In this document: positions 1,091 to 34,775 of the stretch, in pieces | Position numbering within the stretch: the stretch's first letter is position 1 | Layout: the number at the start of each line of letters is the position of its first letter | Notes under the pieces: generated by a model | What the model was told of the DNA's origin: nothing | The model's input: the letters and a program-made list of their open reading frames with translations, nothing else | Database searches by the model: none | Position numbers and translations under genes: made by a program | Source: Candidatus Levyibacteriota bacterium | Lineage (GTDB): Bacteria > Patescibacteriota > Microgenomatia > Levybacterales > GWA1-39-11 | Assembly: GCA_050255815.1 (NCBI GenBank) | Contig: JBLMVJ010000035.1 | Span: 10,727-74,726 of the forward strand | Direction of reading: 5' to 3' | DNA length: 64,000 nt

Positions 1091-1270
1091 CAGAATTGTT
1101 CCAAAAAAGTGAAAAAAAGAAAAACATTTCTTATAAAAGAATAAAATAATTTGTTAGAAGAGGGATTAAAAAAAGAAATTATGAGGCTAAATTTGACCAA
1201 TTGTTAGAAAAAGCCACAATAGTAGTTTTTATCCTTGACATTATACTTTTACACTGATAAATTTAGACAC

Positions 1271-3373
1271 ATGGGAAATAATTCAACCATTATTCTTCTT
1301 AAGAAAATATCTGTTTGGGTACTTTCTTTTGTACTATTCTTCTTCCCTCTTCTCTTTTTAGTAAACGCAACTGATCCATTCCTTTTGCCAAAACAGGTAT
1401 TCCTGGTTATGGCATCTGTAGTCCTGCTGATCCTTTGGAGCGTTATCATGGTCTTTGAAAAAAAGATTATGATCCGGACCAGTCCGTTTAATCTTCCGGC
1501 AGGACTCTTTACTTTAGCAGTACTTATTTCAGCATTCCTCTCCCGGAATATGTATGATTCACTTGCTCTTGCTATTCCGGTGTTGGCTTCTTTCATACTG
1601 TATTTTGTGGCACAAAACACCATATCAAATAAAAAGGATTTACTGTTTGTCTTATCTGCTCTTCTTTTGGGAGGAGCCGTGTCTTCCCTTATCTCAGTTT
1701 TGTACTACCTGAAGATTTACTTCCTTCCTATTCCGGCAATCCAAAGCCAGTACTTCACTACCTTTGGTTCTCCTATCCAGCACATTATTTATATAGTACC
1801 GCTTTTGATTGTTGCCGCCTACTTCCTGTCTAAAGAAGTGAGAGGGAGAAAACCTGAAGCAAACTACAATACTATATTATTTGGCGGACTTACCGGCACC
1901 CTTCTCATCTCTGCCGTCCTCTTAATAGTACAGGTAGTAACTGCACCACAAAAACCACTCTTACTGCCATACACATTTGGCTTCCAGATTGCTACCGCAG
2001 CTATTTCCCAGGACACCACACGCTTCTTAATTAGCCTGCCGTTTGGGTCCGGATTTGGCACATTCTTATCAGACTTTACCAGGTTTAAACTTCCTGATAT
2101 CAATAATGGCCAGCTTTGGGCTGCATCCTTTAGCACTTCTTCTTCTTTTGTCCTGGAGCTTTTAACCACCGTAGGAGTAGTAGGACTTTTAACCTACTTA
2201 TTTATGATTGCCAAGGTATTAAAGAATAGGACAAAAGACACCACCCCATTATTCTTTGCACTGTTAGTAGTGTTCTTAGTCTCATTCTTCCTGCCGCTTT
2301 CTATCATCTCCCTTACCCTTATCTTTATTTTAATGGCGCTGTTTACCAGCACTTTATTCCTGGACCACAGCAAAAATGTATATGATATAAGCCTTTCTAT
2401 AGTAGCTCTAAAACATGGCCTATTCTCTATAGAGGAAACGTCAGGCGCACCTAAGAAAGCTTCAGAATCTTCAAAGGTGCTTCCGATTATTGTAGCGCTG
2501 GTTATCATTCTGGTTGGCGGGTATACCGGGTATCTCTCATTCAAACTCTTGTCTGCAGACATGAAGATGGCAGACTCTTTGTCACAAAGCAAGAGGAACA
2601 ACGGCCAGGCTATTTATGACCTCCAGAGACAGGCGCTCATAGACTTCCCGTACCGCTCTGATTATTACAGGATCTTCTCCCAGATTAACCTGGCTCTTGC
2701 TAACTCTATAGCCGGTGCTGTCCCACAGGGATCTACCCCTTCCACTACGGCACAGGCAACTATTACGCAATTGCTGCAGCAAAGTATTGCAAACGGCAGG
2801 ACTGCAGTAGCCCTGGCTCCTATGAGCTCAGTAAACTGGGAAAACCTTTCCCAAATCTATAGGAGCTTAATAGGGGTAGGACAAAATGCGGGAGAATTTT
2901 CAGTGGCAACCATGAACCAGGCTATCATTTTAGATCCTTCCAACCCACTCCTGAGGGTAGAATTAGGGGGTATCTACTACCAGCTGCAGCAGTATGACGC
3001 AGCCCAAAACCAATTCCAGATTGCAATTAACCTGAAGCCTGACTTTGCAAATGCATACTACAACCTGGGCCATGCTCTTGAAGCAAAAGGAGATCTGAGA
3101 GGTGCAATAACCGCATACCAGGCAGCACAAAGCCTTACCACCAATGATAATGATAAAAAGAGGTTGGATTCTGAAATGGAAGTTATCCTGAAAAAAATTG
3201 GGACAGAGGTAAAACCGGGCACTCAGCCATCAGCAGCTGCTCCATCTGCAGACCAACCACCACTTGGAATAAGTACACCTTCAGCACAACTGCCTAGCCA
3301 AAAAGACCAGGTAAAATTACCTTCACCACCAACTGAAACTCAACCAACAGCCACACCTAAAACTACGAAATAA
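1271..3373 (+). CDS. Polytopic membrane protein with C-terminal TPR repeats and a Pro-rich tail; O-antigen ligase (Wzy_C)-like, paralog 1
   Basis: ORF 1235..3373; start moved to the ATG at 1271 downstream of a TTGACA(1224)/TAAATT promoter-like pair. About 10-12 hydrophobic helices over the first ~400 aa, then TPR-like 'AYYNLGHALEAKGDL', then a P/T/Q-rich C-terminus. The Wzy_C assignment is inferred from architecture only. Confidence 0.7.
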   Translation: MGNNSTIILLKKISVWVLSFVLFFFPLLFLVNATDPFLLPKQVFLVMASVVLLILWSVIMVFEKKIMIRTSPFNLPAGLFTLAVLISAFLSRNMYDSLALAIPVLASFILYFVAQNTISNKKDLLFVLSALLLGGAVSSLISVLYYLKIYFLPIPAIQSQYFTTFGSPIQHIIYIVPLLIVAAYFLSKEVRGRKPEANYNTILFGGLTGTLLISAVLLIVQVVTAPQKPLLLPYTFGFQIATAAISQDTTRFLISLPFGSGFGTFLSDFTRFKLPDINNGQLWAASFSTSSSFVLELLTTVGVVGLLTYLFMIAKVLKNRTKDTTPLFFALLVVFLVSFFLPLSIISLTLIFILMALFTSTLFLDHSKNVYDISLSIVALKHGLFSIEETSGAPKKASESSKVLPIIVALVIILVGGYTGYLSFKLLSADMKMADSLSQSKRNNGQAIYDLQRQALIDFPYRSDYYRIFSQINLALANSIAGAVPQGSTPSTTAQATITQLLQQSIANGRTAVALAPMSSVNWENLSQIYRSLIGVGQNAGEFSVATMNQAIILDPSNPLLRVELGGIYYQLQQYDAAQNQFQIAINLKPDFANAYYNLGHALEAKGDLRGAITAYQAAQSLTTNDNDKKRLDSEMEVILKKIGTEVKPGTQPSAAAPSADQPPLGISTPSAQLPSQKDQVKLPSPPTETQPTATPKTTK

Positions 3374-3375
3374 GT

Positions 3376-5523
3376 ATGGAAAGTAAAGATGTGCCGTCAA
3401 TAGTATCAAAGCTGCAGATAGGCGTGTTGTGCACCATGCTGGTATTATTCCCCTTAGCATTTATTCCTAACTCCACTGACTCATTTACCATGGGTAAGAG
3501 CCTAATCCTCATACTGGGGACTTCCCTTCTTATCCTGTTGTGGGCAATTGCATCTATATATAAGAAAGGCTTTGTCTATAAATCCAGCCCATTTAACCTT
3601 CCGGTTGCCCTTTTTGGCGTAGTGGTACTTATTTCCTCCCTGCTCTCCCGCAATATGTATGATTCTCTTGTTGCAGCTGTTCCCGTAGTCTTCTCTTGCG
3701 TATTGTACTTTACCATTTCTTATATGATAAGCAGCAGAAAAACACTTATTTTAGCTATTACCAGCCTTATTGCCGGCGGCGCACTGACTGCCCTTTTAAG
3801 TACCGCTTACTATCTGAAACTTTATTTCCTGCCTATTCCGGGTATTAATAACCAGTACTTTTCCCCGTTTGGGTCAGGCGTACAGGAAGCAATTTACCTG
3901 ATTGCCCTTCTCATGTTCCCGCTTTTCTCCCTATTAAGACAAACAAAGACCAGAAAGCTTACGGTTACGCAGGATTTCCTCATTGAAGCAGGTTTGGGAG
4001 GCGCACTTTTGATAGGGGTAATCTTTATTACCCTTTCCATCATTACTTCCCCAACCAAACCTATTATATTGCCATACACATATGGCTTGCAGATTGCAGC
4101 CGCTACTATTAGCCAGGATATCTCGCGCCTCTTTATCTCATTCCCATTTGGATCCGGCTTTGGCACGTTCTTAAATGACTTTGCCCGCTTCAGACTGCAG
4201 GAGCTGAACGCAAACACTACGTTTGCTACCGCCTACCCATCCTATTCATCATCTTTTGCCCTGGAGCTGATGACTACCACCGGCATCTTAGGCATCCTTT
4301 CTTACCTCTTTATAGTGTTTAAGGCCTTAAAAACCCGCATGAAAGACAGCAATCCATCTTACTTTGGCCTGGTTATCTTATTTATTGTCTCATTCTTCTT
4401 ACCGTTTGGCCTTCCAACTATTGCACTGGTCTTTATTCTTTTGGGAGTCTATTCATCATCCTTATTCCTGGCAAATGACAGGCGGGTACATAATACCAGC
4501 CTCTCACTGGTTGCCTTTGACCAGGGAATTATTTCTACAGAGGATGTGTTGAGGAATGAGCGGGTTAAGTCTGAGAGTATTATCCTGCCGGTTCTTATCA
4601 CTATCTTAGTGGTACTAATAGGAGGATTTGCTTCATTTATGATGGTACGCCTGGTAGATGCAGACACCAAAATGGTTTCCTCTTTGGTTGTACCTGCCGG
4701 TAAGAAGCTCACCATCCAGCAGCAATATGACTTGCAAAGAAATGCGGTAAATGAATTCCCTTATAAATCAGACTACCAGAGGACATTCTCCCAGCTTAAT
4801 ATGAACCTGGCTAACTCTATTGCTGCCAGCCTGCCAAAAGGCGCTACCCCATCAGCAGTTGTACAGCAAAGCGTCAACCAGCTCTTACAGCAATCAGTAA
4901 ATTCAGCCAGAAGCGCTGCTGATATAGCACCGCTTACTTCAACCAACTGGTCCAATCTGGCACAAATTTACCGGAACCTGATAGGCGTGGGCCAGGGAGC
5001 TGACCAGTTTGCCATTGCAGCCATGAACCAGGCAACACTGTTAGACCCAACCAATCCATTCTTAAGGCTGGACTACGGTGGTATTTATTACCAGTTAAGC
5101 CAGCTGGATGCAGCCCAAAACCAATTCCAGATTGCCATTAACCTGAAGCCTGACTTTGCTAATGCCTATTACAATCTGGGCCATGTGATAGAGTCCAAAG
5201 GAGACCTTTCTACCGCACTTTCTCTCTACCAGACTACCCTTTCCCTGGCCGGAAACAATCCAACAGATAAAAAGAAACTCAGTGATGAAATAGAAGCATT
5301 GAAGAAAAAGATTAATGAAACAGCAGCTACTCAACAGCAGCAGACACCGGTAAACCTGCAGACCAGCGCAGGCCAGCAGCAACCTATTGGCATTAACGCT
5401 CCTTCAGCTCAATTTCCAGCACCTAGCAGGCCGGTAAAACTTCCTCCACCTCCTGGTGCCAGCGCTTCTCCGGAACCGTCTCCTTCGGCTGCTCCCAGGC
5501 CTACGGCCACCCCCACACAATAA
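3376..5523 (+). CDS. Polytopic membrane protein with C-terminal TPR repeats; O-antigen ligase (Wzy_C)-like, paralog 2
   Basis: Starts 2 nt after the stop of the preceding gene. Collinear similarity to paralog 1 (e.g. 'NMYDSL', 'FGSGFGTFL', 'QNQFQIAINLKPDFANAYYNLGH'). Confidence 0.8.
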   Translation: MESKDVPSIVSKLQIGVLCTMLVLFPLAFIPNSTDSFTMGKSLILILGTSLLILLWAIASIYKKGFVYKSSPFNLPVALFGVVVLISSLLSRNMYDSLVAAVPVVFSCVLYFTISYMISSRKTLILAITSLIAGGALTALLSTAYYLKLYFLPIPGINNQYFSPFGSGVQEAIYLIALLMFPLFSLLRQTKTRKLTVTQDFLIEAGLGGALLIGVIFITLSIITSPTKPIILPYTYGLQIAAATISQDISRLFISFPFGSGFGTFLNDFARFRLQELNANTTFATAYPSYSSSFALELMTTTGILGILSYLFIVFKALKTRMKDSNPSYFGLVILFIVSFFLPFGLPTIALVFILLGVYSSSLFLANDRRVHNTSLSLVAFDQGIISTEDVLRNERVKSESIILPVLITILVVLIGGFASFMMVRLVDADTKMVSSLVVPAGKKLTIQQQYDLQRNAVNEFPYKSDYQRTFSQLNMNLANSIAASLPKGATPSAVVQQSVNQLLQQSVNSARSAADIAPLTSTNWSNLAQIYRNLIGVGQGADQFAIAAMNQATLLDPTNPFLRLDYGGIYYQLSQLDAAQNQFQIAINLKPDFANAYYNLGHVIESKGDLSTALSLYQTTLSLAGNNPTDKKKLSDEIEALKKKINETAATQQQQTPVNLQTSAGQQQPIGINAPSAQFPAPSRPVKLPPPPGASASPEPSPSAAPRPTATPTQ

Positions 5524-5827: not shown

Positions 5828-6952
5828 CTATTGGAGGAAGGACAGAGGATTCTGGTTGCCGGAGGCTGAACGTACTTCAAAGTGTAAATGCGGTCCCGTA
5901 GTCCTACCGGTCACCCCTACCCATCCTACCACCGTCTTTCCGGCGGTTACCCTATCCCCTGCAGAAACACCCAAACCACTCATATGGGCATATAGCGTAG
6001 AATACCCATTATCACCGTGAATCACCACGTGGGTTCCATAGCCGTAATTCCAACCGCTGGGGTACGCAGCAGACACTACGCCGTTCTGTGCGGCTATAAT
6101 AGGCGTCCCAATAGGCGCGCCTAAGTCAACTCCCGGGTGGTACCAGTAGAATCCCTGGTTCAGGGTTCCTCTGATAGGCCAGGTAAACCCGGCGTCTGTT
6201 ACGGTAACCGGACCGCTTGCTATATACGTCTGCCTCACATACTGCGGACTTACCTGCTCTTCAGGCTTCACCCCATCAGGAACTATAATAATCTGACCGG
6301 TAACCAGTGAGAATGTCTGGGGATTTGCAAAATCGTTAAACGGAAAATCTACTATAGCCTGCGCGTTTACATTGTATTTTTTAGCTATGGAATAAATAGT
6401 ATCACCCTCTGCAACTTTATGGGAAATTCCGGTGACCGGCAGGATCTTGAGGTTATCGCCTATAGAAATGTCATCCCCGGAGAGGTCATTTGCCCACTTG
6501 ATAGTGTCTGAAGAAATTCCAAATTTAGAAGCTATAGTAGAAATGGTATCTCCTTTCTGCACGGTGTAGGTAATAACTTTGTCACGGACTCCTACCGTAT
6601 TTTGGGTTTGGAAGACGTTATCCTGGGAAAGCGTGAGGGAATCAGCCTGGGGGGACTGGGCAAAGGAAAGCATGCTTTTCTGGGTAGGCAGCAGCTGGGA
6701 ATCAGTAATAAACGGGGAAATCATAACCCCTACCGTCAAAATAACCATAATGCTGACATGCAGGAACATACGGTTTCTCCTGCCGCGCCTTATTAAAACG
6801 CCCTTTACTATATTGTTTTTCTGTTTTTCAAACTCATTGGAGATAAAAATAAACTTGTCCTGTATGTAAATTTTGAAGAAGATGGAGAAAGCTTTTGCTT
6901 CAGAAAGGATAAAACCAATACTTTTTCTAACCGTTTTCAACGTATTTCTCAT
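5828..6952 (-). CDS. LysM-domain peptidoglycan-binding M23 family metallopeptidase
   Basis: N-terminal TM segment. Two LysM motifs ('YTVQKGDTISTIASKFGIS', 'HKVAEGDTIYSIAKKYNVN'). M23 signature 'HxxxD ... GPHLHFEVR' at the C-terminus. Confidence 0.9.
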   Translation of the reverse strand: MRNTLKTVRKSIGFILSEAKAFSIFFKIYIQDKFIFISNEFEKQKNNIVKGVLIRRGRRNRMFLHVSIMVILTVGVMISPFITDSQLLPTQKSMLSFAQSPQADSLTLSQDNVFQTQNTVGVRDKVITYTVQKGDTISTIASKFGISSDTIKWANDLSGDDISIGDNLKILPVTGISHKVAEGDTIYSIAKKYNVNAQAIVDFPFNDFANPQTFSLVTGQIIIVPDGVKPEEQVSPQYVRQTYIASGPVTVTDAGFTWPIRGTLNQGFYWYHPGVDLGAPIGTPIIAAQNGVVSAAYPSGWNYGYGTHVVIHGDNGYSTLYAHMSGLGVSAGDRVTAGKTVVGWVGVTGRTTGPHLHFEVRSASGNQNPLSFLQ

Positions 6953-8778: not shown

Positions 8779-9450
8779 ATGAACTTTACTAAACTTTCTA
8801 AAATCGCTCTTACCGCCTCAGCTATCCTCATGGGATCCGCAAACCTTGCCTTTGCAGCAGGGTCTACTAATTGTGAAATAGTATACGGTGGCGGACAAGT
8901 TTGTACTCCTCAGATTAAATTTACTATAGATAAAAAGATCCAGAAGCCTACAAAAGGTGGAGGGTTTGTAGACAACCTGGGGGCAAATGATGACAAATTT
9001 AATCCCGGCCAAGACGTAGTCTTTCAAATCACTGTTCAAAATACCGGAGACCAGGCAGTAACATTAAACGTTGTTGACGTGCTTCCTTCTTATATAACTT
9101 TTGTTTCAGGCGGAAACTTTGATTCAGGATCTAATAAGGTTACCAACCAGGTCTCACTCAACCCGAATGATTCAAAAACCTTTACTATTGCAACCAGGGT
9201 GGTAAATGCCGGAGGTCTTCCTGCAAACCAATCAGTTACGTGTGTTACTAACGTTGCAAACGCTATGACCACTGACAACAACAACAGCGCGCAGGATACC
9301 GCACAATTCTGTATCCAGAATAATGTAACCGTACAGCCTCAGATTCCATCAAAATCTATCCCAAATACCGGTCCTGAAGCTTTAGCCTTACTTATTCTCC
9401 CTCCAGTAGGCGCAGCAGGTTTTTACTTAAGACGTAAAGCTGTCCTCTAA
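8779..9450 (+). CDS. Secreted surface protein with a C-terminal sortase sorting signal (IPNTG + hydrophobic segment + basic tail)
   Basis: N-terminal signal peptide 'MNFTKLSKIALTASAILMGSANLAFA'. C-terminus 'SIPNTGPEALALLILPPVGAAGFYLRRKAVL' is a classical LPXTG-type anchor. Confidence 0.8.
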   Translation: MNFTKLSKIALTASAILMGSANLAFAAGSTNCEIVYGGGQVCTPQIKFTIDKKIQKPTKGGGFVDNLGANDDKFNPGQDVVFQITVQNTGDQAVTLNVVDVLPSYITFVSGGNFDSGSNKVTNQVSLNPNDSKTFTIATRVVNAGGLPANQSVTCVTNVANAMTTDNNNSAQDTAQFCIQNNVTVQPQIPSKSIPNTGPEALALLILPPVGAAGFYLRRKAVL

Positions 9451-9745: not shown

Positions 9746-9842
9746 ATCCACTTATGTGGATTTAATGGATGCTCCGATAATATCGGAGCAAGGTACTGTA
9801 AGTACCGGGTTTTGCGCGCTATGAGGAGAGACATGGCGCGCG
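9746..9842 (+). other. Four consecutive hairpins: ATCCAC-tta-GTGGAT, GCTCCGAT-aat-ATCGGAGC, GGTAC-tgta-GTACC, and GCGCGC...GCGCGC enclosing a GAGGAG RBS
   Basis: Inverted repeats read directly. Located at the left edge of the high-GC island. Confidence 0.5.
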
Positions 9843-9881
9843 ACATCCGGTACTTACCGAGAAAAAACGGAGAAGCAGAAC

Positions 9882-10040
9882 ATGACACAGCCCTCTACAC
9901 CCGAGACCAACACCCTCGCCCATGCGCTTGCGCAAGCTTTGGCTAACCGCCAAGGTAAAAATCCACGCAAGCTGCGGACAGCAAAGGACTTTGAGTTTCT
10001 GGGCCGCGAGGTACTGAAGGTCATAGGACAACAGGCATAG
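9882..10040 (+). CDS. Hypothetical small protein (52 aa) within the high-GC island
   Basis: ATG at 9882, stop at 10038-10040. An alternative overlapping 37-aa ORF starts at 9833, directly after a GAGGAG RBS. Which is real is unresolved. Confidence 0.25.
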   Translation: MTQPSTPETNTLAHALAQALANRQGKNPRKLRTAKDFEFLGREVLKVIGQQA

Positions 10041-10048
10041 GAGAACTC

Positions 10049-10333
10049 ATGAACCTACTTCTGGGATACGGATCACTTGCATTCACCTCTTGGTGGATCG
10101 CAGGTACTATCGTCTTTCTTCTGATGCGCAAGCACCGGAAGACCGTCCTCTGGAGAGTGGTTTACGGACCGCTCGTGTTTATCCTCGCGGACTTTATACC
10201 TGCCCTGGCGCAAGCTATGGGTATGCGTATTTGGTACGCTGAAGGAAACGTCAACATCGCCTTCTGCCGGCATGACCCGTCAGAATTCAAGGCGATCTGC
10301 AGAGACTGCGGACAAGAGGTTCACAAATCCTAG
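10049..10333 (+). CDS. Hypothetical small membrane protein (94 aa, two TM helices, C-terminal C-x10-C-x2-C)
   Basis: AGGAGA RBS 4 nt upstream of the ATG. Hydrophobic segments 'SLAFTSWWIAGTIVFLLM' and 'VVYGPLVFILADFIPAL'. Confidence 0.45.
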   Translation: MNLLLGYGSLAFTSWWIAGTIVFLLMRKHRKTVLWRVVYGPLVFILADFIPALAQAMGMRIWYAEGNVNIAFCRHDPSEFKAICRDCGQEVHKS

Positions 10334-10344
10334 GAGGACAGCGA

Positions 10345-10557
10345 TTGAAGACTAGACCGCCGCCGAAGGCACTTTCCTTGGGAAGCCCCAAAAAGGCAAG
10401 CCCAAAAAGCAAGGTAGTATCCCGCAAACGCGTAAGCGTGTTCGGAACTTGCTTTCTAATGCAGAAATGCACGGGAAGAAATTCCTGGATCCTTACCGGC
10501 CCTAGTTCATCCGAATTCTGGCTTTGCAAGCCAACAGCTCATGGAGAGATGCCATGA
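10345..10557 (+). CDS. Possible small, highly basic protein (70 aa, TTG start) in the island
   Basis: AGGAGG at 10333-10338, 6 nt before the TTG. Low-complexity, K/R/S/P-rich product; may be non-coding. Confidence 0.2.
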   Translation: MKTRPPPKALSLGSPKKASPKSKVVSRKRVSVFGTCFLMQKCTGRNSWILTGPSSSEFWLCKPTAHGEMP

Positions 10558-11990
10558 ATTGGACTGCGCTACTAGCGTGGGTGATGGACCCAGTCCGCAC
10601 CCTTGACGAACTTCGGCAGGCGCACCTTGCCCTGATCGGCCATCCCAACATGGGGAACCGCGTTCAGGTGCGTGCGCGCGTGAGGAACTACATCAATCTG
10701 ATGATCGCCACCCAAGGTGGAGGAGCTCCTGCTCCTTGGCACCCTGGCATGGGCGCTCCTGTGGTTCCTCCAACGCCAACACCTGGCCCTGCGCCCGTTC
10801 CTGGTCCTGGCCCTGCGCCCGTTCCTGGTCCTGGCCCTGCGCCCATCGTCCCGCTCGTTCCGGTTGTCGGCTATCGCCCACGCATGTGGACGTACCGCCG
10901 AATGATACGGAGAGCGCTAAACGAGGGCAACACCGCCTGGATGGATACCGAACTCACGGCATGGGGAGACCCTCCGGGAGTCGGCACTCCAGCACAGCGT
11001 GCGTACCGGCTCGAGAACTTCTCGAGGTCACGGCACGGGTGGAACCGCATCGGGCATGATATCCCGGAGCTTGTTCCGCCTGGCGCACCGGCACCGGCAC
11101 CCCGCCGACAGGTGGACTACGGTCCCCTTGGGTGGATCGCAGGTGCTCTGCTGATCGCAGCCGGCGCAGCCGTACTGTTCTTCGCCTTGATTCTGCCTCT
11201 CTCCAAGTGGGGATGGGACCAGAGCTTCGGCGACGACACGGCAGTGCAGCAGCCCGGCAACCAGCCTGGTAACCAGCCCGGCGGCAACAACGGCAACGGT
11301 AGCGGCAACGCGAACCAGCCTGGCAACAACGGCAACGGTAGCGGCAACGCGAACCAGCCCGGCAACCAGCCCGGCAATAGCGGCGTCATCAAGAACTTGG
11401 CCGACGGCCAGTTCCCCTGGACACCGCCCACACCGGGTACCGACCTTGGGAACGACAAGCAGTTCACCAGCACCATCATCGAGCAGGCCAAGCAGGGAGA
11501 CTGGATTCACAGGCTCTTCAACCCTGGCTTGTTCAACGCAGCCAATAACTACGGCGGAGCCGATTCTTGGGCTATTAGCCTGAACGTCGGTCCGAACGCT
11601 GGTGGCAGCTGGAAGGGCGAGGGAGTCTCGGGACGCTTCGTCTACCGTGCTGTGCAGAATCAGGTGGGTTGGTGCCTTGGCATCCTCACCTCGAAGACGT
11701 GGAACAACATCGACCTGAAGAGTCAACTCCTCAGCGGTTCAGACCCCAGTTTGCCGATCGGATTCAACGTCCGCATCGAACCAGGGTCTACCGTGATGGT
11801 GAAGACGAACTCAGGCGAGATCAAGTCCGGCGTCACAAGCGACATGGGTGATATCCAAGTCGTTCTGCCAGACAGCGGGCTGACCACCATCTGCACTGCG
11901 TTCAGCACTGCAGCACCTACGGGTGAAAGCCAGCTTTGGGTGGGACCTCGGGACCGCTCCAAGGACATCAACACGATCGACGCGCGGTAA
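10554..11990 (+). CDS. Hypothetical single-pass membrane protein (478 aa) with Pro-rich and QPGN/NGNGSGNA repeat linkers; high-GC
   Basis: ORF 10524..11990; likely start is the ATG at 10554, preceded by GGAGAG. Central TM helix 'GPLGWIAGALLIAAGAAVLFFALILPL'. Tandem DNA repeats at 10786-10857 and 11281-11358. Confidence 0.6.
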   Translation: MNWTALLAWVMDPVRTLDELRQAHLALIGHPNMGNRVQVRARVRNYINLMIATQGGGAPAPWHPGMGAPVVPPTPTPGPAPVPGPGPAPVPGPGPAPIVPLVPVVGYRPRMWTYRRMIRRALNEGNTAWMDTELTAWGDPPGVGTPAQRAYRLENFSRSRHGWNRIGHDIPELVPPGAPAPAPRRQVDYGPLGWIAGALLIAAGAAVLFFALILPLSKWGWDQSFGDDTAVQQPGNQPGNQPGGNNGNGSGNANQPGNNGNGSGNANQPGNQPGNSGVIKNLADGQFPWTPPTPGTDLGNDKQFTSTIIEQAKQGDWIHRLFNPGLFNAANNYGGADSWAISLNVGPNAGGSWKGEGVSGRFVYRAVQNQVGWCLGILTSKTWNNIDLKSQLLSGSDPSLPIGFNVRIEPGSTVMVKTNSGEIKSGVTSDMGDIQVVLPDSGLTTICTAFSTAAPTGESQLWVGPRDRSKDINTIDAR

Positions 11991-12345
11991 CGCACGGCGA
12001 TCCCAGACTCCTCGGAGTTGCCGATGGAGAGTACCTTAACGTCACGAGCACCGCCTAACCGCTGTGATGATCGTGGTCCGCCTGGAAAAGGAGGTTGACG
12101 ATAACCCTCTGGGTTGTCAGGATCCTGAGCGCAAGCTTGAGGATCTCCTCCACTACGGCGGACAGACTGGACAGTTTATGTGTTTCACGCTCCTTTGAGT
12201 TTTGCATTCAAAGAAAGTCGTGTCACGGCAAAAACTGGTTCCAGTCAGGGTGAGAGACTCATTTATTGAGAATTGATTGGATTTTTTCCATCAAGTCTCT
12301 TTTGAGACTTTCTCCCACCTACATGCCTTTGCGTCTCCCTCACCA

Positions 12346-12410: not shown

Positions 12411-13211
12411 ATGAGCATATTAAAATCTGTCCTTTTCTTTATCTTATTTTTGGCTGTTGCAGCCGGGGCTTTCTATGGGGTAGCTGAGCCCCAAAACACC
12501 CTTATTTCTTCCGTAGGCCCTATGCAGCTGACTGCCGGAGGTGCAGGACTCAGCCTGTTCCAGGGAAGCACCGGGCAGTATTATGATTTCTCACCATTTA
12601 AAGATACGGTAACCTTCCAGAACACTACCACTAACGCGCTGGTTACTGCCCAGGATATCCAGTCAACCGGTTATAAAACTTCCCTAAAAGTACCGTTCAT
12701 ACAGAATCTATGGGAAACCTTTCTCTTTTACACAGGAGCAGACACCCCTTCCATGAGGTTTCTGACCGGCAAAAACATCACCTACTCCTCTACCATTAAA
12801 GCCAACAAATTAATAGTCACCAGGACTATTCAGGGGGAGAAAAATCCTATTACAAAAACTGATATGACCATTACCTTTCATGCTATGGATTTTGTGTTTG
12901 ACCGGACAGGAAATTTATATAATTATGTAGACCCTGGAACACAGTCATTCTTTGAGCAGACTTATAACAAAACCTTGACACCTCAGCTGAATGACACTTC
13001 TATCACTGTTATGGGAAATATTGTTTTTATTTATAACCCTAAAATTGCCGCCGTTATGGCTATCCAAACCGTAGGGAACCAGACTATTACGGTGGACCGG
13101 AATGAGAAAGTAATCAGGATTTCTGAAACACCAAAGGTAAAAAACAATATCTACCAGGATTCTCTGCAGGTAACCGTTTTAAACACGCCAAAGGAGGCTT
13201 TTAACCTATGA
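12411..13211 (+). CDS. Hypothetical secreted or membrane-anchored protein
   Basis: N-terminal hydrophobic signal/anchor 'VLFFILFLAVAAGAFYG'. No known motif. Confidence 0.6.
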   Translation: MSILKSVLFFILFLAVAAGAFYGVAEPQNTLISSVGPMQLTAGGAGLSLFQGSTGQYYDFSPFKDTVTFQNTTTNALVTAQDIQSTGYKTSLKVPFIQNLWETFLFYTGADTPSMRFLTGKNITYSSTIKANKLIVTRTIQGEKNPITKTDMTITFHAMDFVFDRTGNLYNYVDPGTQSFFEQTYNKTLTPQLNDTSITVMGNIVFIYNPKIAAVMAIQTVGNQTITVDRNEKVIRISETPKVKNNIYQDSLQVTVLNTPKEAFNL

Positions 13212-15049
13212 TAAACGCTATTTTAGCCGCTTTAGCCCTCTACTTGTTGCCTATTATCTTAGGCCGCCCATTGGTAAGGTTTTTCTATAAAAAAGAACTA
13301 GCCTATCCGTTTATTAGCTATTTTACGGCTGGATCTATGCTTTTATATGCCGGGATGCTTCTTTCCTATGCATTAAAACCTTACATCCCTCTGTTCTCAA
13401 GCTTTACTTTGCTGCAGGAAACTATCCTGGCGCTCTCATTTATCATGCTCCCGTTAAACCTGCTGGTAAAAAGGGATGATATTGACCTGGAACCGTTTAC
13501 ATTTCCTGCACTTCTTTCAGCAGGAATTGGCCTTATTTCCTATCTCATATGGCAATATAAATCCCCGTACTCATTTAACTGGGATATGTTTGAGCACCAA
13601 ACACTGGTAAACCAGATTTTGGGTGGACACCTGAGCGTTATTCCATCTCAGCTTACCGATACCTTTGGGTTTAACGGTTACTCTACCCTGTTCCATAGCC
13701 TGGTTGCAGCTTCCCAAACGTTTTTTAGCCCCCAAATACTGCAATACTGGACGGTTATCTCAGGTTTCCATTTAGTAATTGCTGCATTTGCATCATACCT
13801 GTTAACCCGTGAGATCACTGACAATAAACTTGCCGCATCTCTTGCTGCTCTGGTAACCGGTATGGTTTTTGATTCCAGCATTTCATTTACCACCATGTTT
13901 TTTATCCCGCAAACATTTACGGCAGTCCTGTTTGCTTTCCTGTTTACCCAGCTATTATCAGAGGCTAAATCCGGCCGTATTACCAGCCTGCCATTGGCAA
14001 TTTTCCAAGGCCTATTTCTGCTTATCAACCATTATATTGTAGGCCTGGCAGCGGCTGTTTTTTACCTGGGTTCTTATGTCTATATTAAGTTTTCAGCGCT
14101 ACTGGAACGTAGGTTTGGCGCGCGCCATATGGTAATGGCAGTCCTGTTTTTGGCTTTGTTAGGGATCATCTTCTCTCCCGCCCTGCCGTTAGGATTTATT
14201 AACAGCGGAGAGGCTCAGGACTATACCTTAACTATGGTAGATAAATTCAATATTATGAAACAGACATACGGTTACCTGATGCTGCTTTTATTACCGTTAG
14301 GGATCTGGTCAGCAGTAGGAAGTAAAAAACGCATACCACTCTTTTCCTTAATTATTACGGTACTGTTACTTTCTATTGTAATTGCACAACTTCCTTATAC
14401 GGTAAAATTCTTTACCCTGGCCCGCTTTTTTATTGATGCATTTATTGCCATAGGAATTTATTATGTTCTAAAGCCTATGAACACGTTTTTTAAAGGCTTA
14501 TCCTTGGGGGTCTTGGTGCTTGCACTAGGCGGACTTCTGGTAATAAATGCGGCTAACTGGAAAGGGATCTTGCGCTACCAGAACAGCTATACACAAATAT
14601 CCCCGTTTGAGCTGCAGGCAGCAAGCTTTTTGAAAAACGCTTATGGAGGATCTTCCGTCCTTATGGTTTCTGATCCGGCAACCCAGAACATGATGGAGCC
14701 TATTTCAGGCGTAAATTCCCAGGGAGGGGCTTATATGAGCACGTATTCCCGGGAAACTCTGGCTGAGGCAGGTACCACAGATAATCCAGTGCGGGCAGCC
14801 ACAGACCTCTACAAGATTCAGGATAAAATTATACCTGAAGATAAAAGGATTTTAGTCCTTTCAGGGCGCTACTTTGCCTGGCAGAGCGCTTCTATTGGCC
14901 TCAAGAAGGCATTTTCTTACAACGTTTGGAACCCTTCAGGACTTACTCTGGAAGATATAGGGAAAATTGACCACATGCTCTCTGATACAACCCATTTTAA
15001 GTTGGTTTACCAAAACCCTGAAGTGGCTATTCTAGAGGTAACAAAGTAG
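13208..15049 (+). CDS. Large polytopic membrane protein; candidate GT-C-fold, polyprenyl-phosphate-sugar-dependent glycosyltransferase
   Basis: ATGA start/stop overlap with the upstream gene. More than 10 predicted TM helices followed by a soluble C-terminal domain. Genomic context is GT2 (DPM-synthase-like), GT4 and galE. Confidence 0.7.
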   Translation: MINAILAALALYLLPIILGRPLVRFFYKKELAYPFISYFTAGSMLLYAGMLLSYALKPYIPLFSSFTLLQETILALSFIMLPLNLLVKRDDIDLEPFTFPALLSAGIGLISYLIWQYKSPYSFNWDMFEHQTLVNQILGGHLSVIPSQLTDTFGFNGYSTLFHSLVAASQTFFSPQILQYWTVISGFHLVIAAFASYLLTREITDNKLAASLAALVTGMVFDSSISFTTMFFIPQTFTAVLFAFLFTQLLSEAKSGRITSLPLAIFQGLFLLINHYIVGLAAAVFYLGSYVYIKFSALLERRFGARHMVMAVLFLALLGIIFSPALPLGFINSGEAQDYTLTMVDKFNIMKQTYGYLMLLLLPLGIWSAVGSKKRIPLFSLIITVLLLSIVIAQLPYTVKFFTLARFFIDAFIAIGIYYVLKPMNTFFKGLSLGVLVLALGGLLVINAANWKGILRYQNSYTQISPFELQAASFLKNAYGGSSVLMVSDPATQNMMEPISGVNSQGGAYMSTYSRETLAEAGTTDNPVRAATDLYKIQDKIIPEDKRILVLSGRYFAWQSASIGLKKAFSYNVWNPSGLTLEDIGKIDHMLSDTTHFKLVYQNPEVAILEVTK

Positions 15050-15194: not shown

Positions 15195-15956
15195 ATGTTT
15201 CAGAATAAAAAAGTTTCAGTCATTATTCCATGCAGAAATGAGGAGGCTGCGCTCTATTCCATGCTGCAAAATATCCCCTCTATAGTAGATGAAGTTATTG
15301 TGGTTGATAACGGATCTACTGATAATACGGCCTTTATTGCTACCACCTTAGGGGCAAAAGTCATCAAAGAAAAAAAACAAGTTGACGGTGTAGGTTATGG
15401 ATTTGCCCACCAGACCGGAATGAAACATGCAAAAGGTGATTTCATAGTTGCCCTAGATGGGGATAATACTTACCCTATAGAAAAGATCCCGGAAATCCTG
15501 GCTTATATGGAAAAAGCGCGGGTGGATTTTGTGTCCTGCGCTCGCTTCCCGCTTTCTAACACTGCTGCCATTTCCAAACTACGGCAGTTGGGTGTTAAAA
15601 TTTTAAATTTAGAGGCTTCCCTTTTGTTTGGGTACCATATGAAAGACGTGTTAAGCGGCATGTGGGTTATGAGAAAAGAATGTGTAAGAAAATTGAACGC
15701 AAAATCAGGAGAATGGAATTTCTCCCCTGAAATCAAACTTACCGCATTAATGCATCCTGAGATCAGGTTCTCTGAATACCATATTTCCCACTCTATCCGT
15801 TATAACGGCGTCTCAAAACAGCAGATCTGGAAAACAGGATTAAACCACATGTTTTATATTCTGGAGCTCCGGACAAAATACGCTAAGATGCACCTGCCCA
15901 GACTTAACGTACAGTTTAGCTTTTATAAAGCTGCCTGGGCAAAACTGACTGCCTAA
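15195..15956 (+). CDS. Glycosyltransferase family 2 (dolichyl/polyprenyl-phosphate sugar synthase-like)
   Basis: 'VSVIIPCRNEE', 'VVDNGSTDNT' and 'ALDGDNTYP' motifs typical of GT2 DPM1-like enzymes. Confidence 0.9.
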   Translation: MFQNKKVSVIIPCRNEEAALYSMLQNIPSIVDEVIVVDNGSTDNTAFIATTLGAKVIKEKKQVDGVGYGFAHQTGMKHAKGDFIVALDGDNTYPIEKIPEILAYMEKARVDFVSCARFPLSNTAAISKLRQLGVKILNLEASLLFGYHMKDVLSGMWVMRKECVRKLNAKSGEWNFSPEIKLTALMHPEIRFSEYHISHSIRYNGVSKQQIWKTGLNHMFYILELRTKYAKMHLPRLNVQFSFYKAAWAKLTA

Positions 15957-26984: not shown

Positions 26985-27983
26985 ATGCAGTATAATATTC
27001 CCATGTCTCCCATCATTTCAGTTGACCATCTAGTAAAAACATATAAAGTCCACAAGAAAGACCCGGGGTTTATGGGATCCGTAAAGTCTTTAGTAAACAG
27101 AAAATATGAACAGGTCCATGCGGTAAAAGATATTTCTTTTGAGATAAATCCCGGAGAGCTGGTAGGCTTTATAGGGCCTAATGGTGCAGGAAAAACTACC
27201 ACGCTGAAATGTCTGTCCGGTTTGCTTTTTCCCAGTGCCGGAAAGGTTGAAGTATTAGGATATGAACCTTTCCAAAGAAAAACCCCTTTTCTGAAGCAGA
27301 TTGCCCTGGTCATGGGACAGAAAAACCAGCTCTGGTGGGACCTTCCCCCTACAGAAACTTTTATCTTAAATAAGGAAATATATGAGGTGCCGGAGAAGCG
27401 GTTCAAAGAAACACTGAATGATTTAGTGGAACTCTTAGATGTAAAGGACGTGTTGAATATTCAGGTCCGGAAGTTATCTCTAGGGCAACGCATGAAATGT
27501 GAGCTAATTGCTGCCCTTCTCCACTCCCCTAAGGTTTTATTTTTAGACGAGCCAACCATAGGACTGGATGTAGTAATGCAGAAAAAACTCCGCGACTTTA
27601 TTAAACAATACAATGAAAAATACAACGCCACTATTATTTTGACCAGTCATTATATGGAGGATGTGCGGCAGCTATGTGAGCGAGTCATAGTCATAGACCA
27701 TGGAATGCTGCTGTTTGACGGAAGATTAGACGCGCTGGTGAAAGAATACACCCAGCACAAACTGATCTCTATAGTGTTTGAGAAAAAAGTGGAACGAAAG
27801 GATCTGGAAAAGTTAGGAACAGTACTGGAATATGACTTTCCAAAGGTTATCCTTTCCGTAAACCGCAAAGATTCCAACCAGGCTACTTCAAAACTCCTGA
27901 AAGACTTCCCCGTTGCGGATTTAAATATCCAGGAACCGGATATAGAAGACATCATTAGAGAGGTCTTTTCAAGAAAGAAATAA
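26985..27983 (+). CDS. ABC transporter ATP-binding protein
   Basis: Walker A 'GPNGAGKTT', ABC signature 'LSLGQRMK', Walker B 'LFLDEPTIGLD'. Confidence 0.9.
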   Translation: MQYNIPMSPIISVDHLVKTYKVHKKDPGFMGSVKSLVNRKYEQVHAVKDISFEINPGELVGFIGPNGAGKTTTLKCLSGLLFPSAGKVEVLGYEPFQRKTPFLKQIALVMGQKNQLWWDLPPTETFILNKEIYEVPEKRFKETLNDLVELLDVKDVLNIQVRKLSLGQRMKCELIAALLHSPKVLFLDEPTIGLDVVMQKKLRDFIKQYNEKYNATIILTSHYMEDVRQLCERVIVIDHGMLLFDGRLDALVKEYTQHKLISIVFEKKVERKDLEKLGTVLEYDFPKVILSVNRKDSNQATSKLLKDFPVADLNIQEPDIEDIIREVFSRKK

Positions 27984-28093
27984 ACCAAGAAATTCAGTAG
28001 AAATAGATAGAAATTCATAGAAACTAAATTGTATTTATTGCTGCACTTCAGTTTCTACCAATTTCAACTAATAGCTACCATTTTCTATGCCTT

Positions 28094-28894
28094 ATGTTGC
28101 GCAGTCTGAAATTATTTTTAGTAGAATGCCAGCTGGTGATTGAGGTAAAAAGCCTCTCCGTAGTGTGGTTTTTAGCCTCCATTTCAGGATCTATCCTTAT
28201 GATTATCTTCTGGACCGGTGTTACCAGCGCAAACGGCGGCTCCATTTCCGGCTGGAACACGGGAAGTTTTGCCACGTACTACCTCCTGGTTGCTCTGGCG
28301 GGGTCTCTCTTTATAGCCCATATAGAAGAAAATGTTTCCTTTCAAGATATCCAAAGAGGTGAGCTCTCTATGTATCTTTTGAAACCCTTCCCTTATTTTA
28401 GGTTTAAGCTGCTGATTGAGCTCCCCTGGCGCTTCATGCAAGGTGCTTTTGCCATTATAAGCATGATTTTAGTATTTCTGCTGGTTCCTCACCTGATCCA
28501 GATCACCCTTTCCCCGGTCCTGCTTCCTATGGCAATTTTATTAGTTTTCAGCGCCTTTTTATTGTCATTTACTTTCAAAATGTGCCTGGGGCTTCTGGCT
28601 TTCTGGTTTACAGAAATCAACTCACTCCTGCAGCTGACTGAAATTATTCTTACCCTCTGCGCAGGCTTCATAGTGCCATTGGTGTTCCTCCCAAATTATT
28701 TGCAAACCCTTTTTAATATCCTTCCGTTCTCTTACATGGTCTACTACCCTATCCTGGCACTTTTAGGAAAACTTAACCCAGACCAAGAAATACGAGTGTT
28801 TGGTATACAAATGTTGTGGACCTTTTTATTCTATCTACTCTATAAATTTCTCTGGAGGAAAGGAAGGCTGAAATTTACTGCCGTAGGACACTAA
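28094..28894 (+). CDS. ABC-2 family transporter permease, paralog 1
   Basis: Six TM helices. Shares the 'G.LS.YLLKP' motif with the next three genes. Confidence 0.7.
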   Translation: MLRSLKLFLVECQLVIEVKSLSVVWFLASISGSILMIIFWTGVTSANGGSISGWNTGSFATYYLLVALAGSLFIAHIEENVSFQDIQRGELSMYLLKPFPYFRFKLLIELPWRFMQGAFAIISMILVFLLVPHLIQITLSPVLLPMAILLVFSAFLLSFTFKMCLGLLAFWFTEINSLLQLTEIILTLCAGFIVPLVFLPNYLQTLFNILPFSYMVYYPILALLGKLNPDQEIRVFGIQMLWTFLFYLLYKFLWRKGRLKFTAVGH

Positions 28895-28895
28895 T

Positions 28896-29681
28896 ATGCA
28901 TTACCTAAAGATCTTAAAAGCGCTGATAGTCATTAACACCGCATACGCGTTAGAGTACAAGGCGCATTTTGTGGCCCAGGTTTTTGCAAGCCTGGCCTGG
29001 GGCGTATTTTCCGTGGTCAACATGATCCTTTTGACGTACCGCGTCCACTCTGCTTTTGGCTGGAGCAGGAATGAGCTCATCCTTCTTTCCGTTATGGTTA
29101 ATGTAGTCTATGGCATCCACCGTATGTTGTTTGATGTAAACTTCTGGAGATTCTCCCGGATTATCCATTATGGAGAAATGGACATGGTGCTGTTAAAGCC
29201 CGTGGACTCCCAGTTCCAAATGAGCATGTGGATCATAGATATTAGCGGTATCTTCAGATTTTTAGTTGCCCTAGCGCTCACCTTTATCCTGGTTTTTGCC
29301 ATGCACTTTCCTATTTCTCTGACAAGTGTGTTGATTGCCACTATTTTAAGCCTGGCCGGTGTGGTCCTTCTCTATGCTTTCACCTATATCTTCCTAACCC
29401 TCACCATCTGGTTCTCTAACCTCTCTAACCTGATGGGACTGGTGAATAATATCCTTTCTATGTCCCGGTATCCAAAAGAAATGTATGAAGGATTAGGCAC
29501 CTACTTTTTCTTTTTTCTCTTGCCTTTAATTGTTATAATAAGCACTCCTACAAAAGCTCTCATCCAAAAGGGGAACCTGTTAGATAGTCTGCTTTTAGTA
29601 CTCTTTACTATCCTATTTTTTGCAATCTCAAGGGTGTTCTGGAAATTCGCCCTGCGGTTCTATGTCAGTGCTTCAGGATAA
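28896..29681 (+). CDS. ABC-2 family transporter permease, paralog 2
   Basis: 'YGEMDMVLLKPVDSQF' motif. Polytopic. Confidence 0.7.
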   Translation: MHYLKILKALIVINTAYALEYKAHFVAQVFASLAWGVFSVVNMILLTYRVHSAFGWSRNELILLSVMVNVVYGIHRMLFDVNFWRFSRIIHYGEMDMVLLKPVDSQFQMSMWIIDISGIFRFLVALALTFILVFAMHFPISLTSVLIATILSLAGVVLLYAFTYIFLTLTIWFSNLSNLMGLVNNILSMSRYPKEMYEGLGTYFFFFLLPLIVIISTPTKALIQKGNLLDSLLLVLFTILFFAISRVFWKFALRFYVSASG

Positions 29682-29684
29682 ACA

Positions 29685-29758
29685 GGAAATTAATAGATAT
29701 TCATAGAAATTAAGAAATTGATTGTAATTACACAATTTAGTTTCCATGAATTTCGCGA
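29685..29758. repeat. 74-bp palindromic intergenic element, copy 1 (GGAAATTAATAGATATTCATAGAAATTAAGAAATTGATTGTAATTACACAATTTAGTTTCCATGAATTTCGCGA)
   Basis: About 95% identical to 48527-48599. Terminal inverted repeat GGAAATTAA...TTAATTTCC. Confidence 0.85.
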
Positions 29759-29792
29759 CCGTAGGGAGCTTATTTCCAAAAATTTCTTTCTT

Positions 29793-30587
29793 ATGTATAA
29801 ATATTTCCGTATCTTCACCAATGTCTGGGGCAAAGCCCTTTCTTACCGGGTCAACTTTATCATGTGGCGTGTCCGTGTGGTGCTCCAACTTCTAACGTTA
29901 TTCTTTTTGTGGTCTACTATTCTCACCAACAGGACTGCTATCTTTGGCTACTCTACTTCCCAAATGCTCACGTACATTTTAGGCACTTCGCTCATTTCTT
30001 CTGTAGTTTTGTCCAGCCGCACTTTTGAAGTAGGAGACCAGATAAATGACGGTACGCTTTCTAATTTTCTGATCAAACCCATGTCCTACATAAAATACTG
30101 GTTCTTTTATGACCTGGGGGATAAAGCCAGCAACATATTTTTCTCTATAATCGAATTAACGATAATCATCTTTCTGTTCCGTCCGCCCCTTTATGTCCAA
30201 ACCAATCCCACCTATCTCATGTTTACCCTGGTTTCCGCGTTTTTAGCATTACTTTTATACTTTTACTTTGGCTTTTTACTGGGGCTTTTAGGATTCTGGA
30301 GCAATGAAGTGTGGGGACCACGCTTTATTTTCTTTATCATCATTAACTTTTTTGCCGGCGCTATGTTCCCGCTGGATGCGCTGCCAAAACAAGTGGTAAG
30401 CGTTCTCCAGCTTTTCCCATTCCCGTACCTTCTATACTTTCCGCTGAAGATTTATTTAGGAAAGATTTCTTTCCCGTTGATTATTCAAGGGCTCTTCATC
30501 TGTTCCGTGTGGATGGTAGGATTGTATTTTATTTGTAAATTTATCTGGTTAAAAGGATTGAAATTGTATGGGGCGCAAGGGAGATGA
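29793..30587 (+). CDS. ABC-2 family transporter permease, paralog 3
   Basis: ORF 29718..30587. Start moved to the ATG at 29793 because the 5' part overlaps the repeat element. 'DGTLSNFLIKPMSY' motif. Confidence 0.65.
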   Translation: MYKYFRIFTNVWGKALSYRVNFIMWRVRVVLQLLTLFFLWSTILTNRTAIFGYSTSQMLTYILGTSLISSVVLSSRTFEVGDQINDGTLSNFLIKPMSYIKYWFFYDLGDKASNIFFSIIELTIIIFLFRPPLYVQTNPTYLMFTLVSAFLALLLYFYFGFLLGLLGFWSNEVWGPRFIFFIIINFFAGAMFPLDALPKQVVSVLQLFPFPYLLYFPLKIYLGKISFPLIIQGLFICSVWMVGLYFICKFIWLKGLKLYGAQGR

Positions 30588-30655
30588 GAATGTATCAAGT
30601 GTTAAGTAGCAAGTAGTATGTATTTTCTTGTGTCTCTTTGACTCTTTTGTAACCT

Positions 30656-34000: not shown

Positions 34001-34033
<33 letters not shown>

Positions 34034-34699: not shown

Positions 34700-34742
34700 A
34701 GGTGCCAAACCGCATCGTCGCTGTGGACGCTTGGATGCGATC

Positions 34743-34775
<33 letters not shown>

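Follow-up and report, generated by a model that had tools for sequence, protein, structure and literature searches.

Here we describe a pair of adjacent genes in a window of 64,000 nt (the whole stretch of DNA that was analyzed, to which all coordinates refer) from a metagenome-assembled genome of Candidatus Levyibacteriota, a group of the Patescibacteria or candidate phyla radiation (CPR). The best explanation for our results is that the two open reading frames (ORFs), p1 and p2, encode two specialized copies of an enzyme that belongs to the core of this lineage and has the WaaL / GT-C_B fold. Their membrane domain is a remote relative of the Wzy_C proteins, lying within this superfamily and outside WaaL proper, and in our alignments the position of the histidine required by the characterized ligases and oligosaccharyltransferases of the superfamily is taken by a serine. 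We tentatively propose, as a reading that falls somewhat short of an even chance, that the proteins would transfer a glycan from a lipid carrier to an extracellular acceptor, with a surface protein as the most likely acceptor, in a manner resembling that of the O-oligosaccharyltransferases (O-OTases).

A tandem pair with a remote Wzy_C-type membrane domain

The p1 gene runs from 1271 to 3373 on the forward strand (ATG start; stop codon at 3371-3373) and encodes 700 amino acids (aa); p2 follows at 3376-5523 on the same strand and encodes 715 aa. Both products combine a membrane domain of the WaaL fold with an extracytoplasmic TPR domain and a proline-rich tail. They are identical to the NCBI proteins P0001 (p1) and P0026 (p2), which are encoded on one 88.9-kb contig and are publicly annotated as "tetratricopeptide repeat protein" and nothing more. 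An earlier reading made from the letters alone (the sequence-only reading) had recognized two paralogs of about 710 aa at this place, and the two proteins indeed align end to end with 47% identity and 69% similarity over 706 columns (E=0). The stop codon of p1 and the start codon of p2 are separated by 2 nt (TAA-gt-ATG), and the genes are almost certainly co-transcribed as a tight operon. The translational coupling that had been claimed for them agrees with this tight packing, but the ORFs do not overlap and coupling is no more than plausible. An alternative TTG start for p1 at position 1235 is unsupported by the N-termini of homologs.

Hydropathy and AlphaFold2 models give 11 transmembrane (TM) helices between aa 3 and 437 of p1, confirming the polytopic nature that had been assigned to the N-terminal domain. 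The membrane domain (aa 1-440; 1271-2590, forward strand) consists of 10 core helices and one extra helix (aa 403-437); the latter comes after a cytoplasmic loop, aa 365-402, that was modeled poorly. A large extracytoplasmic loop of 68 residues (aa 225-292; 1943-2146) sits between TM7 and TM8 and carries the family-invariant residues G259, G261, N278 and W283, as judged from conservation in 79 and in 145 sequences. The TPR-like domain (aa 445-643; 2603-3199) follows, with ten helices arranged in about five hairpins in the full-length model. Together with the TPR_11 matches in Pfam (p1, E=3e-12; p2, E=3e-10), these helices establish that the repeats described previously are real. The remainder of p1 is a tail rich in Pro, Thr, Ser and Gln (aa 644-700; 3200-3370). 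The architecture of p2 is the same, with the membrane domain at ~3376-4701, the TPR domain at ~4714-5310 and the tail at 5311-5520. The AlphaFold models of p1 reached a mean predicted local distance difference test score (pLDDT) of 86.8 and a predicted template modeling score (pTM) of 0.88 for the membrane domain, and values of 88.2 and 0.87, respectively, for the full-length protein.

The topology is indicated by the distribution of positive charges. Among 79 family members, the summed mean number of Lys and Arg residues was 16.6 for the short loops predicted to be cytoplasmic versus 1.5 for those predicted to be external, and we therefore assign the N-terminus to the cytoplasmic side, and the conserved loop to the outer side along with the TPR domain and the tail. 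The predicted outside location of the TPR domain and the tail also follows from the parity of the TM helices. The tails had been described as long and P/T/Q-rich; their composition was confirmed (17-19% Pro, plus Thr, Ser, Gln and Ala), but at 55-70 aa they are long only in a relative sense. They are predicted to be disordered, with a pLDDT of 33-67 in the full-length model of p1. The tail motif NQPPL..P..(L/F)P.....VK(I/L)(S/P)PPP, which in p1 is of the VK(L)PSPP type, is kept across the family, with P675 present in more than 90% of the members. The tails are not purely of low complexity. The motif coincides with a small bump in model confidence and a beta-bridge and may serve for docking, possibly in the groove of the protein's own TPR domain.

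It should be noted that the relationship to Wzy_C is not visible in direct profile searches. Neither p1, p2 nor the 16 other close members of our alignment A2 matched the Pfam model Wzy_C (PF04932) at E<=1, and an NCBIfam scan of p1 and p2 returned TPR models alone. Searches of PDB sequences with the p1 membrane domain, a family profile or a Wzy_C-positive relative gave no match to WaaL, and the search with the full-length relative P0117 was swamped by TPR proteins. The link is provided by five full-length relatives with 28-31% identity (P0110, P0112, P0116, P0117 and P0119), which score 36-54 bits against Wzy_C, where the Pfam cutoff is 31.7. Their match maps onto aa 165-318 of p1, and the membrane domain alone finds Wzy_C-positive relatives with a phmmer E-value of 4e-24 and an hhalign probability of 100%. 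Moreover, the membrane domain has a WaaL-like three-dimensional fold. The O-antigen-ligase-like architecture put forward by the sequence-only reading thus holds at the level of remote homology and fold, but not as a direct Wzy_C match. A different transporter family without similarity to Wzy_C did not emerge: Foldseek gave no significant match of any kind, and a transporter of the MFS (major facilitator superfamily) or a similar type was dropped as a candidate since all transporter matches were insignificant.

The likeness to WaaL (CAZy family GT121; CmWaaL from Cupriavidus metallidurans, structures 7TPG and 7TPJ, and EcWaaL from Escherichia coli) includes a long external loop preceding the last three core TM helices, a G-x-G-x-G motif in this loop and the x3-E-x5-G-xx-G part of the signature that opens the next TM helix. 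There are also differences. WaaL has 12 TM helices and both termini in the cytoplasm, whereas p1 and p2 have 10 core helices plus one, a C-terminus predicted to be outside, and an added extracytoplasmic TPR domain and tail. The p1 type lacks two TM helices before the loop that are present in WaaL and in the Wzy_C-positive relatives, the latter having a 12+1 arrangement; of 125 full-length family representatives, 92 resemble p1 in this respect, and the two additional helices are present in 27.

A serine in place of the ligase histidine

The signature of EcWaaL reads H338-N-EII-E-AGSLK-G-LM-G (HNEIIEAGSLKGLMG) and that of CmWaaL H313-N-DIV-E-AASTT-G-IP-G (HNDIVEAASTTGIPG). The counterpart in p1, located at 2141-2185 on the forward strand, is S291-S292-FVL-E296-LLTTV-G302-VV-G305, and the same is found in p2. 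The spacing x3-E-x5-G-xx-G is retained, and His-Asn has become Ser-Ser. The register that equates S291 with the ligase His came out on top in all three hhalign runs, made against the single EcWaaL sequence (E=0.3-0.5) and against an alignment of 24 WaaL sequences (E=0.21), although none of the runs was significant on its own. The Pfam model gives the same register, as its position ~130 corresponds to H338 of EcWaaL, Y338 of P0117 and S286 of P0110. GT121 is recognized by a conserved His in the motif H-[NSQ]-x9-G-xx-[GTY], where p1 and p2 have S291-S292-x9-G302-xx-G305.

For residue counts we used 145 family representatives at 50% clustering, taken from an exhaustive profile search. The His position is occupied by Ser in 78 of them, by Arg in 15, Tyr in 9, Ala in 8, Gly in 8 and Phe in 6; only 5 have His. 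Near-invariant residues are found elsewhere: G259 and G261 (145 each), G302 (144), N278 and W283 (143 each), K41 (140), and F287 and G305 (137 each). The strongly conserved polar residues are all located on the predicted outer face, a feature that CAZy has also reported for these families (PMC10920833). No acidic residue (Asp or Glu) is universally conserved among the 145 representatives. The conserved external basic residues are K41 and, at position 271, Arg or Lys (97 of 145), with K228 and R251 conserved in the close family only; none of these was equated with an Arg of WaaL.

In the characterized ligases and O-OTases the missing residue is required. The TfpM variant H286A is inactive and the PglS variant H324A serves as an inactive control (PMC9829042, PMC12800693), and H313 of CmWaaL is the conserved ligase His, proposed to activate the acceptor (PMC10920833). 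Because this residue is Ser in p1 and p2, their chemistry cannot be the canonical His-dependent one. In SEDS (shape, elongation, division and sporulation) enzymes and in inverting Wzy-type polymerases, the His position carries Asp or Glu (PMC10920833). A SEDS-like peptidoglycan glycosyltransferase, analogous to RodA or FtsW and fused to a TPR domain, is highly improbable: there is no Pfam FTSW_RODA_SPOVE match, no conserved Asp at the His position, and no gene for a class B penicillin-binding protein next to the pair, whereas SEDS proteins pair with such proteins. This candidate was dropped, as SEDS enzymes gave a lower structural Z score and were not the best structural match, and the essential loop Asp was lacking.

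The same residues raise the question of whether the proteins are enzymes at all. The diphosphate of undecaprenyl diphosphate (Und-PP) is bound in WaaL by a pair of arginines, R191 and R265 in CmWaaL and R215 and R288 in EcWaaL. No family residue could be matched to either of them; according to our reading of the alignment, the Wzy_C-positive relatives keep the LTGT context of EcWaaL R215, with Val, Pro or Leu at the Arg position itself. With these equivalents unassigned, with the proposed acceptor-activating His absent and no conserved acid in its place, and with two core TM helices fewer than WaaL, p1 and p2 could be catalytically inactive proteins that have kept the WaaL fold, acting as a scaffold, adaptor or receptor that organizes surface or wall proteins through its TPR domain and Pro-rich tail, or as a transporter resembling IctB. 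The Wzy_C superfamily does include IctB-type proteins that are annotated as putative transporters (PMC4594306). We consider inactivity quite unlikely, however, given that K41, G259, G261, N278, W283, G302 and G305 are almost invariant and lie on the outer face, where the active site of WaaL is found, which would not be expected of a pure scaffold. In addition, Asn and Trp are typical sugar-binding residues, and no part of the membrane domain is better conserved between orthologs than the loop (86-91% identity).

A lineage-core family with rare duplications

The family is large. With a profile of the membrane domain, the number of matching cluster representatives was 23,163 at E<=1e-3 and fell to 1,940 when the threshold was set to E<=1e-30, and 124 of the 125 full-length top representatives combine the membrane domain with a C-terminal TPR domain. 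Genomes and loci were surveyed with a profile made from a tighter alignment (A3). A relative is encoded in 145 genomes among the GTDB species representatives, and those with informative titles are all Levybacteria or belong to the Patescibacteria group. Many Levybacteria-type loci (among L014-L093) are titled "uncultured Gammaproteobacteria bacterium", a title that resembles a placeholder or a labeling error made in a bulk submission; two of the loci lie on contigs that also appear under another number (L023 on that of L001, and L031 on that of L009). The near-core status of the gene in one CPR lineage is new.

The gene is usually present as a single copy. Tandem pairs were found in 2 of 80 loci (L014 and L029), and one further pair is split across contigs (L015/L019). 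A relative with 75% identity (L008/L014) has the same tandem pair as the window, and relatives with 61% identity (P0004 and P0007) have one copy. Beyond its ortholog q2, the nearest relatives of p2 are members of the p1 clade, with 47-51% identity. The duplication was thus a rare, recent and lineage-specific event, after which one copy diverged fast and then stabilized. The sequence-only reading had regarded a duplicated, TPR-tailed O-OTase pair as an undescribed variant, which overstates the case: duplication as a family trait is ruled out by its presence in 2 of 80 loci only, and the combination of Wzy_C with a C-terminal TPR domain has already been described for WsfB and PglL (PMC2943079) and is nearly universal in the present family.

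Both copies are under purifying selection. The identities between orthologs are 75.0% for p1 and q1 and 73.7% for p2 and q2 (q1 and q2 being the pair of L008/L014), and the number of nonsynonymous substitutions per site (dN) is 0.18-0.20 for both pairs, with synonymous sites saturated. In the loop, identity rises to 86% (p1-q1) and 91% (p2-q2). The possibility that p2 is a decaying pseudo-paralog was ruled out on these grounds, since its ortholog is as conserved as that of p1. The changes specific to the p2 lineage (P40G, Q42S/G, T270A, F287Y and the loss of the otherwise invariant W283) cluster in external segments, with N116Y/S as the exception. Such a pattern would be consistent with a change in the specificity for donor or acceptor. 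A second tandem duplication, at 3744-8124 of L029, arose independently in another Levybacteria lineage; its copies share 50% identity, compared with only 37-43% to p1 and p2, and K41, N278 and W283 are retained in both.

Putative glycan transfer outside the cell and its genomic setting

We infer the following mechanism. A polyprenyl-diphosphate-linked glycan would be made in the cytoplasm and flipped outward, where it would bind in the region of the conserved external loop (K41, G259-x-G261, N278, W283 and S291-S292...E296). The glycan would then be transferred en bloc to an extracytoplasmic acceptor, which may be held by the C-terminal TPR domain that the eleventh TM helix is predicted to place outside, beside the putative catalytic loop. 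The Pro-rich tail would reach into the wall zone. The first candidate for the acceptor is a giant, Ser/Thr-rich, membrane-anchored protein encoded directly upstream of p1.

Several considerations favor a protein acceptor. Levybacteria are a CPR group of the monoderm type, in which lipid A-core, the acceptor of WaaL, is not expected. The giant surface protein is the most constant neighbor on the same strand. Furthermore, the architecture resembles that of PglL, PglS and WsfB (PMC12800693, PMC9829042, PMC2943079), and the gene is conserved and single-copy, unlike those of the hypervariable, cluster-embedded Wzy polymerases (PMC10920833), whose identity can be as low as 16% between serotypes of one species (PMC10920833). 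The 40-60% identity among family members across the lineage, compared with the variability of Wzy, points to a constant acceptor.

The comparison with known O-OTases supports this view in part. PglL, PglS, TfpO and TfpM share the Wzy_C-type core with p1 and p2, and in PglL and PglS, too, an extra TM helix connects the core to an outward-facing C-terminal domain that is thought to recognize the protein substrate; PglS has 13 TM helices and its periplasmic C-terminal domain has been suggested to read sequons (PMC12800693, PMC9829042). The appended domain is different, however, being a TPR domain in p1 and p2, without Wzy_C_2 or PglL_A. Also, the equivalents of PglS H324 and TfpM H286, which are required for activity, are absent from p1 and p2 (PMC12800693, PMC9829042), and the pair is not located beside a pilin gene. 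WsfB of Paenibacillus alvei, a predicted S-layer O-OTase known to us from its published description, is closer in that it comes from a monoderm host and carries Wzy_C followed by a C-terminal TPR domain; in Geobacillus stearothermophilus, WsaB is encoded alongside the separate TPR protein WsaA. The role proposed for WsfB and WsaB is the en bloc transfer of a lipid-linked glycan onto a surface protein (PMC2943079). WsfB lies within an S-layer glycan cluster with glycosyltransferases and a transporter, whereas our pair is flanked by the genes for the giant surface protein, a LysM-M23 protein and Rho.

The giant protein enters the window at its left edge, where positions 1-1041 on the forward strand (frame 1, open from base 1) encode its C-terminal 346 aa. 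This product is 40-66% identical to the C-termini of proteins of 739+ to 2406 aa that are encoded directly upstream of the family gene in L003, L008, L009 and L010, and in 36 of 61 loci a gene for a giant protein, in the same orientation, occupies the directly upstream position. Orthologs of 1,580-2,783 aa begin with a region of ~340 aa that contains two integrase-SAM-like modules of the core-binding type, followed by one TM helix and then by ~1,200 or more aa rich in Ser, Thr, Asn and Gly (~20% Ser plus Thr); with a cytoplasmic N-terminus, this part should be extracellular. The fusion of DNA-binding-type modules to a membrane-anchored surface protein, seen in L001, L003 and L008-L012, is an unusual architecture in itself. 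Downstream of the pair, and convergent with it, lies a gene for a peptidoglycan hydrolase with LysM and Peptidase_M23 domains (5828-6952, reverse strand). Such a gene is found downstream in 31 of 44 loci (including L001, L003, L005 and L008-L011). Of the same 44 loci, 36 have Rho downstream and 30 have a DUF11/CLIPPER protein that carries an IPNTG sorting signal. The synteny is kept in L011, at 41% identity; in L012, at 39%, it is looser, with a pilin-like N_methyl gene inserted, and in L013, at 28%, it has disappeared.

A number of findings weigh against glycan transfer to a protein. The His needed by WaaL, PglL, PglS and TfpM appears as Ser291 without a conserved Asp or Glu as a substitute, and the Und-PP-binding arginines are unmatched, as described above. 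The profile comparison of A2 with an alignment of 24 enterobacterial WaaL sequences was not significant (hhalign, E=0.21), p1, p2 and other family members had no Pfam match at E<=1 to PglL_A (PF15864) or Wzy_C_2 (PF11846), and p1 and p2 had no direct match to Wzy_C. Common descent may be enough to explain the synteny with the giant protein, which is lost at 28% identity. The nearest glycosyltransferase genes are ~10 kb away from the pair, and no flippase (MOP/Wzx-type) or priming phosphoglycosyltransferase was detected among the scanned ORFs of the window, with ~16 ORFs of at least 120 aa and smaller ones unscanned. Finally, TPR domains are found in polysaccharide-export machinery, too. Our confidence is limited mainly because the canonical His is absent without an acidic substitute, because the PglL-specific domains are absent and because the synteny is perhaps merely inherited. 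The proposal that p1 and p2 are candidate protein O-OTases thus retains the Wzy_C-related fold and the extra TM helix that places the C-terminal domain outside, and loses the canonical His and the domains of PglL.

The neighborhood also bears on a different kind of acceptor. Instead of modifying proteins, p1 and p2 might join a lipid-linked wall polysaccharide to peptidoglycan or to a membrane lipid anchor, or carry out a Wzy-like polymerization, with the TPR domain as a scaffold for partners in wall synthesis or export. The Wzy_C/GT-C1 families include polymerases that lack the His, and for Gram-positive ligases of the GT121 type a role in linking capsule to peptidoglycan has been proposed (PMC10920833). 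The frequent LysM-M23 gene downstream would suit such a function, and so would the surroundings of the distant, Wzy_C-positive P0110, whose gene has those for LysM-M23, Mur ligases, MraY, WecG and a GT4 enzyme in its vicinity. However, the adjacency of LysM-M23 and Rho may be plain synteny of the lineage. Besides, Wzy polymerases (GT-C1) carry Asp or Glu as a conserved residue and are hypervariable proteins encoded in glycan clusters beside Wzx, whereas the present family mostly has Ser at position 291, no family-wide conserved acid, and a conserved, usually single-copy gene outside such clusters. We therefore regard a non-protein acceptor as doubtful, although a serious possibility.

Glycan transfer to a surface protein can also be carried a step further. 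The His-less clade might be a separate glycosyltransferase family, in which a Lys-Asn-Trp-Ser site would stand in for Arg-Arg-His, and its members might be the general surface-glycosylation enzymes of these ultrasmall bacteria, which depend on hosts, dedicated to the giant protein encoded upstream, with the tandem duplications (in the window and L008/L014, and in L029) adding a second specificity. We put this forward as a speculative extension that is rather unlikely to be right in full.

The sequence-only reading had also pointed to a type IV pilin, a sortase substrate and several GT2 enzymes as supporting context. All are encoded in the window, but none abuts the pair. The DUF11 protein with the sortase-type IPNTG signal is encoded at 8779-9450, ~3 kb downstream. 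The three GT2 genes are located at 15195-15956, 43306-44736 and 60198-61142, the nearest ~10 kb from the pair and the other two at 38-55 kb; the first belongs to a group of GT2, GT4 and epimerase genes at 15.2-18.1 kb, ~10-12 kb downstream. The only pilin-like gene (47925-48485, reverse strand; GFTLIE motif) is 42 kb away. Directly upstream of the GT2/GT4/epimerase genes, two overlapping ORFs of 266 and 613 aa without a Pfam match (12411-15049, forward strand) could encode uncharacterized membrane components of that glycan pathway. At 60198-63682 on the reverse strand, the GT2 gene (314 aa) adjoins the gene for an 804-aa, GT-C-like membrane protein with LPG_synthase_TM and DUF2079 domains; this looks like a pair of a polyprenyl-phosphate-sugar synthase and a GT-C enzyme, that is, a second, independent route of extracytoplasmic glycosylation.

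In front of p1, a promoter-like site, TTGACA-17-TAAATT with a TG extension (1235-1263, forward strand), matches 10 of 12 consensus positions and ends 8 nt before the ATG. The evidence for it is weak, and promoter and terminator scans of the region found no more sites than expected from shuffled sequence. If used, it would produce a leaderless or nearly leaderless p1 mRNA, and the TTG at 1235 would be part of the -35 hexamer itself.

Other parts of the window are of interest in their own right. Positions 9800-12200 form an island of 52-66% GC in a background of ~43%, without an Rfam match, which is possibly foreign or an assembly chimera. It contains a forward-strand ORF of 488 aa (10524-11990) without a Pfam match. 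The translated product has runs rich in Pro, Gly and Ala (PAPVPGPGPAPVPGPGP), a single TM helix and NQPGN/NGNGSGNA repeats, and its C-terminus is globular. One ABC ATPase gene followed by four consecutive genes for ABC-2 permeases (ABC2_membrane_6) occupies 26985-31453 on the forward strand, a segment that is strongly T-skewed. The 23S rRNA gene (33883-37949, reverse strand) is ~4.07 kb long, has a group I intron at 35258-35526 and probably holds further insertions; 5S rRNA (33600-33717) and a tRNA (38223-38295) lie on either side, and no 16S rRNA was detected in the window.

In summary, p1 and p2 do not represent a new kind of system, since the Wzy_C plus TPR architecture is known; they belong to a widespread, uncharacterized variant of a known enzyme class. 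What is new, besides the near-core status of the gene, is the assignment of a fold to a large family whose membrane domain was unannotated, the family-wide loss of the His together with a distinct set of invariant residues (K41, N278 and W283), and the finding that the p1 type has lost two TM helices. In the literature that we searched, no link was found between Patescibacteria or CPR bacteria and O-antigen ligases or oligosaccharyltransferases. The practical value of these findings is moderate. If the proteins are active, the His-based mechanism of the Wzy_C ligases and O-OTases would not be universal and CAZy would gain a family; if they are inactive, they would provide an example of an enzyme fold put to new use as a scaffold at the surface. 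As Patescibacteria live attached to the cells of a host, their surface should decide attachment and host range.

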